DNA of 39,329 nt from a phage. The notes under the pieces are model-generated. The model made no database searches and was not told the DNA's origin. It was given only the letters and a program-made list of their open reading frames with translations. The position numbers and the translations under genes are program-made. This document shows, piece after piece, positions 36,301 through 39,285 of this stretch (the first letter of the stretch is position 1; every line of letters starts with the position of its first letter). The stretch lies in the sequence record PZ402303.1. One strand, given 5' to 3'.

Positions 36301-37286
36301 GTACTTCCAACTACATTCTGGACATGGCCCGTCAAGGTGTCATGGGAGATGTGGTAACTCATGCCATTACTGGTAAGGGTGCCAACAAGTGGATTAAAGG
36401 AGACATGCTGAAATCTGCGAGTATCTCTAAGGAACAATGGGAAGGCATTCAGAACCTCATCCGCGAGAACGTCACTCAAGGCGCTGACGGCAAGTACACC
36501 TTCAAGGACAAGCGCAAGCTGGCTAATGACCCTCGTGCTATGGACTTGTGGCGCTTAGCTGATAAGGTTGCCGATGAGACAATGCTGAGACCTCACAAGG
36601 TTTCACTTCAGGATTCCCATGCGTTTGGTGCTGCTGCCAAGCTGGTGCTTCAGTTTAAGTCGTTTGTCATCAAGTCGATGAACTCTAAGTTTATCCGCTC
36701 TGGTCACGAGGCTATGAAGAATCACCGAGCTATGGACATGGCGCTGACCTACGCAATCTCTGGAGGTATCGCTGGTTCCTACTACGTGGCACAGGCCCAC
36801 TTGAAGGCTGCTGGTCTACCTAAAGAGCAACAGAAGGACTACTTGAAGAAAGCTCTGGACCCTAAGATGATTGCCTATGCTGCTGCGTCCCGAAGTTCAC
36901 ACTTAGGTTCCCCGTTGAGTATCGCAAACTTCGCTATGGGTGCTGCTGGTTACGACCAAGGTCTCATGGTCCGCTCTACTATTCTCCCGAAAGGTGAGGA
37001 CAAGCGGGAACGGAATAAGGCGGTAACTTCCCGTGACATGAGTGAATCCATTATGGGTGCTATTGGTGAACAGGTTCCTGCTCTTGGCTTCGCGGGTGCT
37101 GCTCTAGCTACTGGTCGAAATGCTTATGGTGTCCTTACGGCTCCAAACAAAGTGACCGAGCGTGAGATGATGACTGGCTTAATGAACGCCCACCGAGAGA
37201 TGATTCCTAACGACCCAATCTCTCAACAGATGCTCATTAAGTTCTATGAGGCCAACGGTGTTCACATTAAGGCTGACAAGAAGTAA
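33339..37286 (+). CDS. 16: Internal virion (core) protein D with N-terminal lytic transglycosylase domain (gp16), 1315 aa
   Basis: GTG start with RBS TAGGAGG; N-terminus MDKY... and SLT-like motif ES.F.PTA.S.TGP.G.MQFTKAT as in recalled T7 gp16. Confidence 0.97.
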   Translation: MDKYNPNEPHEYDALFQQAADTHGVSYGLLRKVGWVESRFKPTAQSPTGPRGVMQFTKATGQAYGLQNDEDFTDPAKSIDAGARYLADLVKKYDGDELKAALAYNQGEGRNGKPQLEAYDSGNFAGIGDEGRNYLRSLLDVAKSPKSGDIESFGGITPKAKGIPFDAAMSGIGKKGKVTTELPESHEMSFQGKEQAAPNQPFGKDYWEAKGTTLDEANERSTFFGFGNAAEAELSNSTLGVAFRAGKRDNGFDVLTDVLQPTRFNSHIWSPEELEKIRNEVKNPAYMNVVLGGSAENLDELIKLANENFELDSKAADAGLGAKLSAGIIGAGVDPLTYVPIAGSAAKGFKLVNKALMVGAQAGALNVASEGLRTSVAGGDAHYAEAALAGMLLAGGLTAVADGVAAGLRKSGAEQIENPFAAAQMRFEARETARNTGGYDASRMPPSEDRVFSQHNGVEYAPLETEPGAVVLKDGSIISDTNLANPMTAKEFAEVDPERAAWGLPMRGLSEIGLRTLRSEHAEIRGLAKDLVRSPTGMESGSHGKFGATASDIKERLHSNNQRTYNDLYGAMKEAMADPEWSVGMFKQGAQGARQEIYRRVAIAIERPELQANLTKAERKVMDIMKEHFDLKREMMENPSMFGNKATSIFPNSRHKGTYVPHVYSREAKQLYSQALGGSDGLQEAIAASWMTSYRSRPEVKTRVDEHLAETLGIDPKAVTEEMVMKHASDKAYGIAKTDEFNSSSVIDDNIEGLVGIENNSFLEARNLFDSDMPVTLPNGQQFSVNDLRDFDMKHVMPAYDRRVDGDIAIMGGTGKTTAELKDYIMALDKKSEGKGTMKGEVEALKDTVKILTGRARRNQDTMGDTMVRAMSDMSFFTKNAYMGLQNLTEISGLLAKGNTRAMLHGIPALRDLAFRNKPVSGKELKELHSMVFGKEFDDLIRPTRQDIIQRLRESTDTPDVAAKVVGTVKHTTQELAARSPFTKFLNGTSNYILDMARQGVMGDVVTHAITGKGANKWIKGDMLKSASISKEQWEGIQNLIRENVTQGADGKYTFKDKRKLANDPRAMDLWRLADKVADETMLRPHKVSLQDSHAFGAAAKLVLQFKSFVIKSMNSKFIRSGHEAMKNHRAMDMALTYAISGGIAGSYYVAQAHLKAAGLPKEQQKDYLKKALDPKMIAYAAASRSSHLGSPLSIANFAMGAAGYDQGLMVRSTILPKGEDKRERNKAVTSRDMSESIMGAIGEQVPALGFAGAALATGRNAYGVLTAPNKVTEREMMTGLMNAHREMIPNDPISQQMLIKFYEANGVHIKADKK

Positions 37287-37287
37287 A

Positions 37288-37310
37288 CAATACGACTCAC
37301 TATTGGGAAG
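37288..37310 (+). promoter_or_regulatory. Phage RNAP promoter (phi17-like)
   Basis: CAATACGACTCACTATT-GGGAAG with hairpin GGGAAGGCTCACATAGCTTCCC. Confidence 0.8.
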
Positions 37311-37356
37311 GCTCACATAGCTTCCCTCTATTTACCTAACCGAAAGGAGGCTACAG

Positions 37357-39285
37357 ATGGCTAACAAAATTTCCACTGTGCGTACTTACCCACTTAATGG
37401 TGCCGTGAACTTCACAATCACCTTTGAGTATCTGGCCCGTAAGTTCGTGCAAGTAACCCTAATTGGTAAAGACCGTAAGGAACTGGTTCTCAATCAGGAC
37501 TACCGCTTTACCTCTAAGACGCAAATCACAACATCTCGTACTTGGACTGCCGCAGATGGCTACCAGATGATTGAGATTCGTCGATTCACTTCAGCTACTG
37601 ACCGTCTGGTTGACTTTGCTGATGGCTCTATTCTTCGTGCGTATGACCTGAACATCTCACAGATTCAGACGCTGCACGTTGCTGAGGAAGCACGAGACCT
37701 CACTGCTGATACTATTGGTGTCAACAACGATGGTCACTTAGATGCCCGTGGTCGTAAGATTGTGAACCTTGCGTTCGCTACCAATGACTATGATGCGGTC
37801 CCTCTGAAGCAGATTAAAGAGCGTGAGTCCTCTGCGTGGAGTGCTGTTACTAAGGCAAACGAACATGCTGACCGTTCTAATCGAGAGGCTAATCGTTCTC
37901 GTGATGAGGCTAACCGTGCTCAACGTGAAGCTGACCGTTCAACTCAACAGGCAGGTATCTCTACGGCACAAGCGGTTGAGTCCAAGAAGCAAGCTGACCG
38001 TTCCAACTCTGAGGCTAACCGTGCTAAAGGTTATGCTGATAGTATGACCGCAAGTGTCGCTGAGGCCAAGAAGCAAGCTGACCGTTCCAACTCTGAGGCC
38101 AATCGTGCCCGTGATGAGGCCAATCGTGCTGCCGGAGAAGTGACTAAAGCTGCTGCTGAGGTTGCCAAGGCTGCTGCACATGTGGCTACAGCTAAGGGAC
38201 ATGCTGACCGAGCCAACACTGAGGCCAACCGCTCCAAGAGTGAAGCCGACCGTGCAAAGACCGAGGCCGATAAGTTGGGGAACATGAATGACCTAGCAGG
38301 GACCATTGAGAGCATTGGAAGTAATGGTAAGGACATTAACTTCAAGGGAGGCGTTAATGGTAACACAATTCTTGCTAAGAACTCTGTACACGCTGGGGTT
38401 CAACCAAACACTGCGTTCTTCAGTGATAACACACTACGTCTTCGCAACCGTGACCACAAGGAACGCGCTTGGGACATCTTTGTTTGGGGTAATGATTCTG
38501 GACGGGGCAACGTACTGGAGTTCGGAACTAACTACGGTAAAGGGTATGGGATGTACTTGCAGTTTGCTAATGGTGACTCACAAGATTCCCAACTTCAGGT
38601 TAATGGTGCAATTGCAGCTAAGACAGATATTTATGGACGGGGCATCACAGCAAATGGGGAATTAATTACCCGATCACAAAACCTTAAGCTGATTAACTCT
38701 GCTCGTCGACATATTCAGTTCATGACTGCCAATAACTACACCGATGGTTATCTCTATAAAGACCCCGGTGCTGGTGCGTGGAGACTTAACTTTGGTCAGG
38801 CAGCTAACATGGAGTATACGTTTGCTTCAAACGGTCACTTGACATCTAACTCAGGGTGGAACATCCCACCAGATGGTAACCTATATATCAAGAAGTACGG
38901 AATGTACATTGATGCTTGGGTCAACAAGCGTCTGTCCGAACATGCCTACAACAAGGGTGAAGTTAACAACTTGGTCAACGGTCGCCTCACTGCTGGTCAA
39001 GGTGATGGTCGCTATGTCCGCAAGAACGCTGGGTGGGCTGAGGTCTGGAAAGGCTCTGCTGGTGGTGGTGTCTCTGTAGGTCTCTCTCAAGATGTCCGCT
39101 GGAGAACCATCTGGATTCAAACACAAGGTCGTTGGAACCCTGTTCAAATTGGGGACAATGGGGCTTACTATATCTCGTCTATGGGTGGGTGGTTGCAGTT
39201 CACCATCTCTAATAACGGTAGGACGTTCCGTAACGATGCAGACAGAGCTTCTGTTCCTACGAGAATCTTGGTTCAAACCCAATAA
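37357..39285 (+). CDS. 17: Tail fibre protein (gp17), 642 aa
   Basis: Conserved N-terminal tail-attachment domain (MANKISTVRTYPLNGAVNFTITFEYLARKFVQVTL...); long repetitive coiled-coil shaft; divergent C-terminal tip; RBS AAAGGAGG. Confidence 0.95.
   Translation: MANKISTVRTYPLNGAVNFTITFEYLARKFVQVTLIGKDRKELVLNQDYRFTSKTQITTSRTWTAADGYQMIEIRRFTSATDRLVDFADGSILRAYDLNISQIQTLHVAEEARDLTADTIGVNNDGHLDARGRKIVNLAFATNDYDAVPLKQIKERESSAWSAVTKANEHADRSNREANRSRDEANRAQREADRSTQQAGISTAQAVESKKQADRSNSEANRAKGYADSMTASVAEAKKQADRSNSEANRARDEANRAAGEVTKAAAEVAKAAAHVATAKGHADRANTEANRSKSEADRAKTEADKLGNMNDLAGTIESIGSNGKDINFKGGVNGNTILAKNSVHAGVQPNTAFFSDNTLRLRNRDHKERAWDIFVWGNDSGRGNVLEFGTNYGKGYGMYLQFANGDSQDSQLQVNGAIAAKTDIYGRGITANGELITRSQNLKLINSARRHIQFMTANNYTDGYLYKDPGAGAWRLNFGQAANMEYTFASNGHLTSNSGWNIPPDGNLYIKKYGMYIDAWVNKRLSEHAYNKGEVNNLVNGRLTAGQGDGRYVRKNAGWAEVWKGSAGGGVSVGLSQDVRWRTIWIQTQGRWNPVQIGDNGAYYISSMGGWLQFTISNNGRTFRNDADRASVPTRILVQTQ
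37984..38108 (+). repeat. In-frame direct repeat inside the tail-fibre shaft (two 41-bp copies, 39/41 identical)
   Basis: aagaagcaagctgaccgttccaactctgagg(c/t)(t/c)aa(c/t)cgtgc at 37984-38024 and 38068-38108, encoding KKQADRSNSEANRA; further degenerate ADRSN.EANR units flank it. Confidence 0.6.

Follow-up and report, generated by a model that had tools for sequence, protein, structure and literature searches.

A probable gp17 tail fibre of a Berlinvirus T7-like phage, with a repeat-rich coiled-coil shaft and an apparently exchangeable middle cassette

Described systems close to this one include T7 gp17, a 553-residue protein with structures for the N-terminus (7BOZ, 7EY9 and 8E4G) and for the pyramid and tip (4A0T and 4A0U), and the fibres of PYps50T, ETEP21B (PMC11267873) and Sxt1 (PMC11680406). 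For the latter relatives a common architecture has been published in which the first ~320 residues are conserved and the next ~180 are divergent, repeats lie close to the boundary between the two, and an extended helical linker leads to a T7-like tip; in the Berlinvirus-type fibre of Sxt1 the linker carries a 27-residue insertion (PMC11680406). For ETEP21B there are an AlphaFold2-multimer model of the fibre and tests of the phage against LPS mutants (PMC11267873). We describe here a fibre of this kind, encoded in a window of 39,329 nucleotides of phage DNA (PZ402303.1). The finding is an ordinary one and already known; GenBank lists the gene as encoding a tail fibre, and beyond correct annotation there is little to be gained. 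Feature coordinates are collected in Table 1.

Table 1. Features of gene 17 and its upstream region, in coordinates of the window.
Feature	Coordinates	Strand	Remarks and basis
phi17 phage-RNA-polymerase promoter core AATACGACTCACTAT	37289..37303	+	directly past the gp16 stop codon; read from sequence
ribosome-binding site AAGGAGG	37344..37350	+	6 nt ahead of the ATG; read from sequence
gene 17, tail fibre protein	37357..39285	+	642 aa, ATG start, TAA stop; ORF list
tail-attachment (adaptor) domain, aa 1-162	37357..37842	+	PF03906, T7 gp17 structures
coiled-coil shaft, aa 163-309	37843..38283	+	21 uninterrupted heptads; heptad statistics
direct repeat copy 1, encodes ESKKQADRSNSEANRA	37977..38024	+	repeat search, 41-mer search
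direct repeat copy 2, encodes EAKKQADRSNSEANRA	38061..38108	+	84 nt downstream of copy 1, 45/48 identical
nucleotide-diversity valley, 180 nt	37987..38166	+	holds both repeat copies; diversity scan
variable middle cassette, aa 310-499	38284..38853	+	covers the beginning of the distal half-fibre and the larger part of the pyramid-like beta region
conserved final pyramid strand GWNIPPDGNLYIKKYG plus extended helical linker, aa 500-551	38854..39009	+	alignment
receptor-binding tip, aa 552-642, T7-type beta-sandwich	39010..39282	+	4A0T, Foldseek, T7 identity

The open reading frame very probably encodes a canonical gp17 tail fibre, that of a T7-like podovirus in the genus Berlinvirus that is essentially phage nasanit. 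Positions 1-25000 of the window are 100.0% identical to Escherichia phage nasanit, and gene 17 is 99.9% identical (1927/1929 nt) to the annotated tail fibre of that Berlinvirus (PV245933.1, XRL29493.1), which is the same gene on the same backbone in a similarly permuted record; the two nucleotide differences give two residue differences, N459D and Q481H, both within the middle cassette. A literature search for 'nasanit' returned nothing on the phage. Residues 1-641 match PHROG 4242 'tail fiber protein' (E 4e-235), and four features expected of a gp17 lateral fibre are present: the PF03906 domain, the gene position, a coiled-coil rod, and a pyramid followed by a beta-sandwich tip. Upstream lies a gp16-like ORF of 1315 residues ending at 37286; downstream, as the window is circularly permuted, its first ORF (ATG, MLSLDFNNEV...) begins 45 nt past the gp17 stop codon across the join and occupies the place of holin 17.5 in relatives. 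The order of gp16, gene 17 and the 17.5 holin is that of the annotated T7, BA14, Yepe2 and ETEP21B genomes, and the annotations of BA14, Yepe2 and ETEP21B, like that of T7, place a 23-nt 'promoter phi17' at the corresponding site. Gene 16 is taken here to code for an internal virion protein that has a transglycosylase domain, and 17.5 for the holin. Between 37200 and 39329 we found no Rfam family and no sigma-70-like promoter, and the single terminator-like site is at chance level.

The N-terminal ~150 residues had been assigned in the original prediction to the conserved tail-attachment domain, and this is borne out both by PF03906 (Phage_T7_tail), which spans residues 1-154 (E 5.5e-49, 166 bits with a cut-off of 25.2), and by cryo-EM and crystal structures of the T7 gp17 N-terminus (7BOZ, 8E4G and 8DSP; E 1e-64 to 1e-94). 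The adaptor domain is 68% identical to that of T7 gp17. We considered and rejected a tailspike or depolymerase of the sort known from podoviruses of Klebsiella and Acinetobacter, where an enzymatic beta-helix or hydrolase domain follows an adaptor of T7 type: Pfam gives PF03906 alone, the depolymerases in the PDB (9M4C, 8X8M and 7XY1) match residues 4-155 only, and the C-terminus matches the T7 fibre instead.

The same prediction held that the C-terminal ~300 residues do not resemble the T7 tip and that the tip has been exchanged, and neither view survives comparison with T7. The T7 tip shares 51% identity with residues 552-642, which match its crystal structure 4A0T (E 4.9e-23), phmmer aligns residues 443-641 with T7 366-552, and Foldseek of the predicted model ranks T7 gp17 371-553 (4A0U/4A0T) first (E 3.6e-13, probability 1.00, 209-218 columns). 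The alignment with the pyramid and tip of T7 is collinear over the final ~210 residues, and only residues ~312-442 are weakly similar (hhalign E 9e-4, probability 23%). Domain order is shared with T7, as are the 'DGN..G.KWGG/KYG' strand and the conserved tip core with GSAGGGVSV, SQD.R.R.IWI and GGWL.F.I..NG. The tip is in fact the conserved part, being 84-97% identical among ten related fibres and 70% in Yepe2, and tblastn finds it in 225 phage records, T7 records among them. In the monomer AlphaFold model only the tip is well predicted (pLDDT >90), and the middle has pLDDT 40-80. Nine related fibres match the segment preceding the tip (residues 500-551) at 85-94% identity, JeanTinguely at 77% and Yepe2 at 69%; ~25-29 residues of the segment have no T7 counterpart, and the model places a helix at residues 518-532. 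Relative to T7 the shaft is 42, the middle 24 and the linker 25 residues longer.

The middle cassette behaves quite differently from the regions on either side. It is 95% identical to that of BSP161 and 78-90% identical to those of PYps50T, 285P, PZJ0206 and JeanTinguely, but only 22-27% identical to those of BA14, ETEP21B, PhiV-1, P483, Yepe2 and T7. The Berlinvirus fibres of ETEP21B and BA14, both of 655 residues, illustrate this well: they have the same four-domain architecture, with tips ~52% identical to T7, and relative to the window fibre are respectively 99% and 98% identical in the N-terminal domain, 99% and 95% in the coil, 87% and 90% in the linker, and 95% and 97% in the tip, whereas their cassettes are only 25-26% identical, homologous over the first ~118 residues (91% probability, E 1e-6 for residues 312-429 in an hhalign comparison with the BA14 type) and then unalignable. 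The fibres of BSP161, PYps49T/PYps50T/PYPS50, 285P, PZJ0206 and JeanTinguely (phages of Salmonella, Yersinia, Escherichia, Enterobacter and Escherichia, respectively) are collinear with ours at 642-643 residues and share the cassette type (78-95% amino acid identity), the 21-heptad shaft and the tip (84-93%); their recorded hosts differ, and JeanTinguely has a T7-type N-terminal domain.

Compared with those relatives, the window fibre has a 5' half resembling 285P and a middle resembling BSP161 and PYps50T. Nucleotides 1-900 of gene 17 are 97-100% identical to 285P and ETEP21B. Over nucleotides 990-1440 BSP161 and PYps50T match at 94-100%, ETEP21B at no more than 37-50%, and for the 3' end the figure is 72-94% throughout. 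The crossover lies at residues ~300-330, where a 5' half of 285P/ETEP21B type meets a middle of BSP161/PYps50T type. Carena and CarlSpitteler, the nearest relatives by backbone (93-94%), share gene 17 with the window no further than its first ~950 nt. The original prediction of module exchange thus holds insofar as part of the gene is swapped between phages, but judging from the alignments the exchanged unit is the middle cassette (residues ~312-499) and not the tip. In protein searches with residues 312-642, an exhaustive search of representatives returned 26 clusters, whereas a word-indexed search gave five proteins and missed close relatives; tblastn found the cassette type in 11 records, corresponding to eight phages, out of 50,697 records.

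A separate question is whether the cassette (residues ~312-499) is a second receptor-binding domain whose type gives its carriers a broad cross-genus host range. It is confined to eight phages with recorded hosts spread across E. coli, Salmonella Typhimurium, Yersinia pseudotuberculosis and Enterobacter cloacae, it is the recombining unit, and polyvalence has been described among its carriers: PYps49T and PYps50T lyse strains of Yersinia, E. coli, Salmonella and Shigella (PMC8762354), and 285P is called polyvalent in the title of a paper cited there. However, the case is purely correlative with eight phages, the cassette region is modelled at low confidence, and the tip loops differ among the carriers too and could explain the host differences alone, so that we regard a second receptor domain as unlikely.

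The shaft is a long coiled coil of repeated units, as had been proposed, with a heptad unit (E/Q)A(D/N)R(S/A)xx. With the rows tabulated over residues 170-316, position 2 is A or V in 20 of the 21 heptads and position 5 is A or S in 19, and the lag-7 autocorrelation is 0.55; the predicted model includes only the last portion of the coil, as a helix at residues 301-316. The length comparison with T7 is also correct (642 and 553 residues, an excess of 89), and the shaft contributes 42 residues to it, with 21 heptads compared to 15 in T7. Within the shaft, the predicted 41-bp direct repeat (37984-38024 and 38068-38108) is present and in frame, with a spacing of 84 nt that equals 28 residues or four heptads, but it is not exact, the copies agreeing at 39/41 positions; it extends to 48 nt at 94% identity, and no such match is expected by chance (100 shuffles). 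Tandem Repeats Finder reports one weak array only (21 nt x 3.1 copies, 70% match).

A configuration of this type could indicate that the repeats are a site of active expansion and contraction and that the tip is a foreign receptor-binding module, the fibre as a whole recording a recent host-range switch. We note that unequal recombination between the two copies would change the shaft by exactly four heptads, gained or lost, without disturbing frame or register, that the shaft is six heptads longer than in T7, and that over the aligned coil one distant relative, CICC 80001, lacks 21 nt, or one heptad. We looked for copy-number differences of the kind seen at a repeat-length-variable or contingency-type locus and found none in 18 other lineages representing Berlinvirus, Teseptimavirus and Teetrevirus, in which the coil (147-148 residues) aligns without gaps; coverage of the coil extends to 71 phage records, in which each full-length match listed is a single piece of equal length. 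The repeats also lie in the least variable DNA of the shaft, and the tip has the identities to T7 and to related fibres given above. What we observe is essentially a C-terminus nearly identical to those of known gp17s, with repeats whose structure does not vary between relatives, and we consider an unstable shaft with a foreign tip very improbable; as an account of natural diversity it is largely refuted by these sequence comparisons. The predicted repeat-mediated expansion or contraction finds no counterpart in the alignments, and the repeat-rich shaft instead keeps a fixed length of 21 heptads, with repeat-number change playing no visible part in host range. The near-identical repeat itself is present in 16 of 19 lineages (the window counted), matching at 41-46/48 positions in most, and PYps50T, Yepe2 and Sxt1 have a diverged block of equal length in its place; it is an allelic state without a length difference.

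The 180 nt that bear the repeats are conserved beyond what protein function alone explains. Third-position diversity is 0-0.11 at 37987-38166 and 0.17-0.44 in the flanks, and 15 lineages from three genera are 92-99% identical to the window over this segment, compared to 72-98%, and mostly 77-89%, in the flanks. A nucleic-acid-level function beyond shaft coding, whether an RNA element or an overlapping antisense gene, would account for this synonymous-site valley and for the 87-residue minus-strand ORF (37939..38202) that spans it, but is hardly credible given that the segment folds no better than shuffled sequence (z +1.13), matches no Rfam family, has no promoter-like sites, and that the relationships among lineages reshuffle on either side of it in a manner that fits recombination inside the segment. 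To our knowledge, T7-like phages have all of their genes on one strand. Antisense frames are expected to be free of stop codons in GCN/GAN/CGN-rich repeats, and we reject the antisense and alternative-frame ORFs over the repeats (37939..38202 and 38031..38366, both on the minus strand) as by-products of codon bias. The junction at the end of the coil (~38210-38290) is 76-87% identical at the nucleotide level to T7-like phages of Pseudomonas, Aeromonas, Pectobacterium, Dickeya and Erwinia. A broader proposal, which we offer as speculative and rather doubtful, is that 37987-38166 and ~38210-38290 are preferred sites of homologous recombination that reassort the attachment domain, shaft and distal cassette among the Studiervirinae, and that the rare cassette is a second receptor-binding module behind polyvalence across E. 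coli, Salmonella, Yersinia and Enterobacter.

With the preferred reading of a canonical gp17 fibre, the N-terminal adaptor would dock the fibre trimer on the tail, and the proximal rod would be a three-stranded coiled coil of 21 heptads with a small-residue (Ala/Ser) core. The distal half-fibre is expected to be beta-structured, with a 'WG...R..V.E.G...Y.Q...NG' region followed by the pyramid-like region and then the helical linker, and the outward loops of the T7-type beta-sandwich tip would contact the LPS core. The identities and order of the domains, the constant shaft length and the mosaic history of the gene are shown by the comparisons above. By analogy with work on T7 and ETEP21B (PMC8043750, PMC11267873) we infer a trimer present as six fibres per virion that binds reversibly to LPS core sugars; ETEP21B, with its closely similar tip, plates 3 logs lower on a waaC mutant (PMC11267873). 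Host-range differences most likely reflect both point changes in the tip loops equivalent to the T7 FG and HI loops (residues 609, 628, 630 and 631) and homologous exchange of the middle cassette, with crossovers that would fall in the conserved stretch of DNA where the coil ends. For host-range engineering the exchangeable unit would then be the middle cassette plus a few tip-loop residues, and not the whole tip domain. Among relatives, tip variability is highest at columns 628 (seven states), 631 (five) and 609 (four), which correspond to T7 residues A539, R542 and D520 of the HI and FG loops, positions found to be function-switching by deep mutational scanning (PMC8043750). Relative to T7, N501 is replaced by Q590, D520 by M609 and R542 by A631, with an arginine instead at position 630.

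The tail-fibre gene exists and was placed correctly, yet it is ordinary and already known. Its ORF lies where the original prediction placed it, with an ATG start, and the gp16-like ORF upstream encodes 1315 aa. By Megablast, gene 17 and the gene annotated as tail fibre in Escherichia phage nasanit (PV245933, Berlinvirus) share 99.9% identity, differing by 2 nt and 2 aa, and positions 1-25000 of the window are 100.0% identical to that record. We also note that the window is a complete phage genome that is circularly permuted, base 1 being the start codon's A in an ORF (ATG start) that occupies the holin gene 17.5 position, with 44 nt from the gp17 stop to the window end (39329); the nasanit record has a permutation much like it, its end coinciding exactly with the gp17 stop. 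A terminal direct repeat cannot be seen as such in the window.

Position of the tail-fibre gene and its signals
Feature	Coordinates	Strand	Remarks
ORF, tail fibre	37357..39285	+	642 aa, ATG start
Ribosome-binding site AAGGAGG	37344-37350	+	
Phage-polymerase promoter core AATACGACTCACTAT	37289-37303	+	directly 3' of the gp16-like ORF stop codon

The N-terminal attachment domain is well supported, with a PF03906 match at aa 1-154 (E 5.5e-49), matches to N-terminal structures of T7 gp17 (E 1e-64 to 1e-94) and 68% identity with T7. The C-terminus, in contrast to the proposal that it does not resemble the T7 tip, is T7-like rather than divergent: aa 552-642 match the T7 tip crystal structure 4A0T (E 4.9e-23; 51% identity), and phmmer aligns aa 443-641 to T7 366-552. 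In an AlphaFold2 monomer of aa 300-642, pLDDT exceeds 90 at aa ~560-642 and a helix is placed at aa 518-532. The middle scores poorly (pLDDT 40-80), which is expected when a single chain is modelled out of an intertwined trimer. Foldseek of this model against the PDB has T7 gp17 371-553 as its top hit (E 3.6e-13, probability 1.00, alignment of 209-218 columns). The tip is found by tblastn in 225 phage records, among them records of T7 (about 50%) and of T3 (about 43%).

What has truly been exchanged as a module is the middle cassette, between coil and linker, as seen when 13 fibres are aligned and compared with the window segment by segment.

Identity to the window fibre by segment (same-cassette: BSP161, 285P, PYps50T, PZJ0206, JeanTinguely; other-cassette: BA14, ETEP21B, PhiV-1, P483)
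Segment	Same-cassette	Other-cassette	Yepe2	T7
N-terminus, aa 1-163	95-99% (JeanTinguely 75%)	94-99%	93%	68%
Coil, aa 164-311	91-98%	93-99%	80%	35%
Middle, aa 312-499	78-95%	25-26%	22%	27%
Linker, aa 500-551	77-94%	85-90%	69%	32%
Tip, aa 552-642	84-93%	91-97%	70%	51%

The window's cassette type is present in only 11 records from 8 phages among 50,697 (tblastn), with recorded hosts E. coli, S. Typhimurium, Y. pseudotuberculosis and Enterobacter cloacae. The cassette variants are diverged homologues rather than unrelated inserts: hhalign relates the window and BA14 types over aa 312-429 (91% probability, E 1e-6), and similarity to T7 is weak with order kept. A motif at aa ~451-480 (38707-38796), ARRHIQF..DGYLYKDPGAGAW.LNFG, is also present in otherwise unrelated long fibres of 260-1073 aa (P0025, P0026, P0028, P0030), and seems to be a building block common to many fibres.

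Judged by sliding nucleotide identity, gene 17 is a mosaic in its own right. Over nt 1-900 it matches 285P and ETEP21B at 97-100% identity. Over nt 990-1440 it matches BSP161 and PYps50T at 94-100%, but ETEP21B at no more than 37-50%. At the 3' end, identity to every relative is 72-94%. The crossover thus falls at aa ~300-330, at the coiled-coil end. Carena and CarlSpitteler, two of the closest relatives by backbone (93-94%), share gene 17 over the first ~950 nt only. We also note that the coiled-coil end (~38210-38291, EADRAKTEADKLGNMN) has matches of 76-87% over 48-87 nt in the tail-fibre genes of T7-like phages that infect Pseudomonas, Aeromonas, Pectobacterium, Dickeya, Erwinia and Pantoea, and its position, exactly at the start of the variable cassette, makes it plausible as a shared site of crossover. 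In JeanTinguely a Berlinvirus-type shaft follows an N-terminal domain of the T7 type, which carries the one-residue insertion of T7 and has 75% identity to the window, and there is thus a second recombination junction, between attachment domain and shaft, at about aa 120-160. The 21-heptad Berlinvirus-type shaft is carried by JeanTinguely, Sxt1, Yanou, PHB20 and Ebrios, which are classed as Teseptimavirus or Teetrevirus.

The comparison of 642 aa with 553 in T7 holds, and the 89-aa excess is distributed as -1 in the N-terminus, +42 (six heptads) in the coil, +24 in the middle, +25 in the linker and -1 in the tip. The shaft (aa 163-309) is, as predicted, a repetitive coiled coil, a clean one of 21 heptads without interruption; over 21 rows tabulated at aa 170-316, position 2 is Ala/Val in 20 and position 5 Ala/Ser in 19, and lag-7 autocorrelation is 0.55. 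The direct repeat reported as 41 bp (37984-38024 and 38068-38108) is correctly placed and in frame, although the copies match at 39 of 41 positions; it extends to 48 nt (45/48 matching) with a spacing of 84 nt, or four heptads, and no such repeat is expected by chance in 100 shuffles. Repeat-driven expansion of the shaft is nevertheless contradicted by a length that is fixed in every relative examined. The coil aligns with zero gaps to 18 other lineages of Berlinvirus, Teseptimavirus (JeanTinguely, Yanou, PHB20, Ebrios) and Teetrevirus (Sxt1); the complete fibres of these lineages are 554 to 674 aa long. By blastn, 71 records cover at least 80% of the 485-nt coil, and every full-length match listed is a single ungapped piece of equal length; the only shorter match, by 21 nt, is the distant CICC 80001. 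Shaft length does not change at the repeats, and the near-identical repeat is an allelic state, kept at 37-46 of 48 positions in 16 of 19 lineages (window counted) and replaced in PYps50T, Yepe2 and Sxt1 by an equally long block that has diverged (EAAKGHADRSN...).

Within the shaft, the repeat occupies the DNA that varies least, with third-position diversity of 0-0.11 at 37987-38166 against 0.17-0.44 in the flanks. This 180-nt valley, which includes synonymous sites, coincides with both repeat copies, and 15 lineages of three genera show 92-99% identity with the window inside it and mostly 77-89% in the flanks. Lineage relationships reshuffle on either side, which fits recombination inside the stretch. 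Neither an RNA structure signal (z +1.13) nor an Rfam match was found for it.

The architecture of this fibre is already described, since comparable fibres have been published. The PYps50T fibre, 91% identical to that of BSP161, resembles that of Yep-phi over the first 320 aa and diverges over the next ~180 aa, with repeats near the transition (Hammerl et al., PMC8762354). That of ETEP21B, which has a tip 95% identical to the window's and a middle cassette of another type, was modelled with four domains, with pyramid and tip 26.6% and 52% identical to T7 and two extra short helices before the tip (PMC11267873). The Berlinvirus-type fibre of Sxt1 was described as having insertions in the pyramid, another of 27 aa in the linker, and a tip that shares 54% identity with T7 (PMC11680406).

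We infer trimerisation, stoichiometry and receptor from relatives. By homology with T7 the fibre would be a homotrimeric lateral fibre, its adaptor domain docking on the tail and its coiled coil forming the proximal rod; with the usual coiled-coil rise of ~0.148 nm per residue, the six extra heptads would lengthen the rod by ~6 nm. The beta-structured distal half and lengthened helical linker would bear the T7-type tip. ETEP21B depends on sugars of the LPS core, its plating falling by 3 logs on a waaC mutant (PMC11267873), and given its similar tip, LPS core is the predicted receptor here.

Tip positions identified as functional by deep mutational scanning of T7 (PMC8043750) map as N501 to Q590, D520 to M609, D540 to D629 and R542 to A631, with Arg at 630 instead. 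Tip columns 628, 631 and 609 vary most among 11 related fibres and lie in loops equivalent to T7 HI and FG. The PhiV-1 fibre gene (MT542512) has only two ambiguous bases (N), at gene nt 1922 and 1930. They are the middle bases of the two tip-loop codons that vary most, equivalent to window 628 and 631 (39238-39240 and 39247-39249; T7 A539 and R542), which suggests that the population in the sequenced lysate was mixed at host-range positions.
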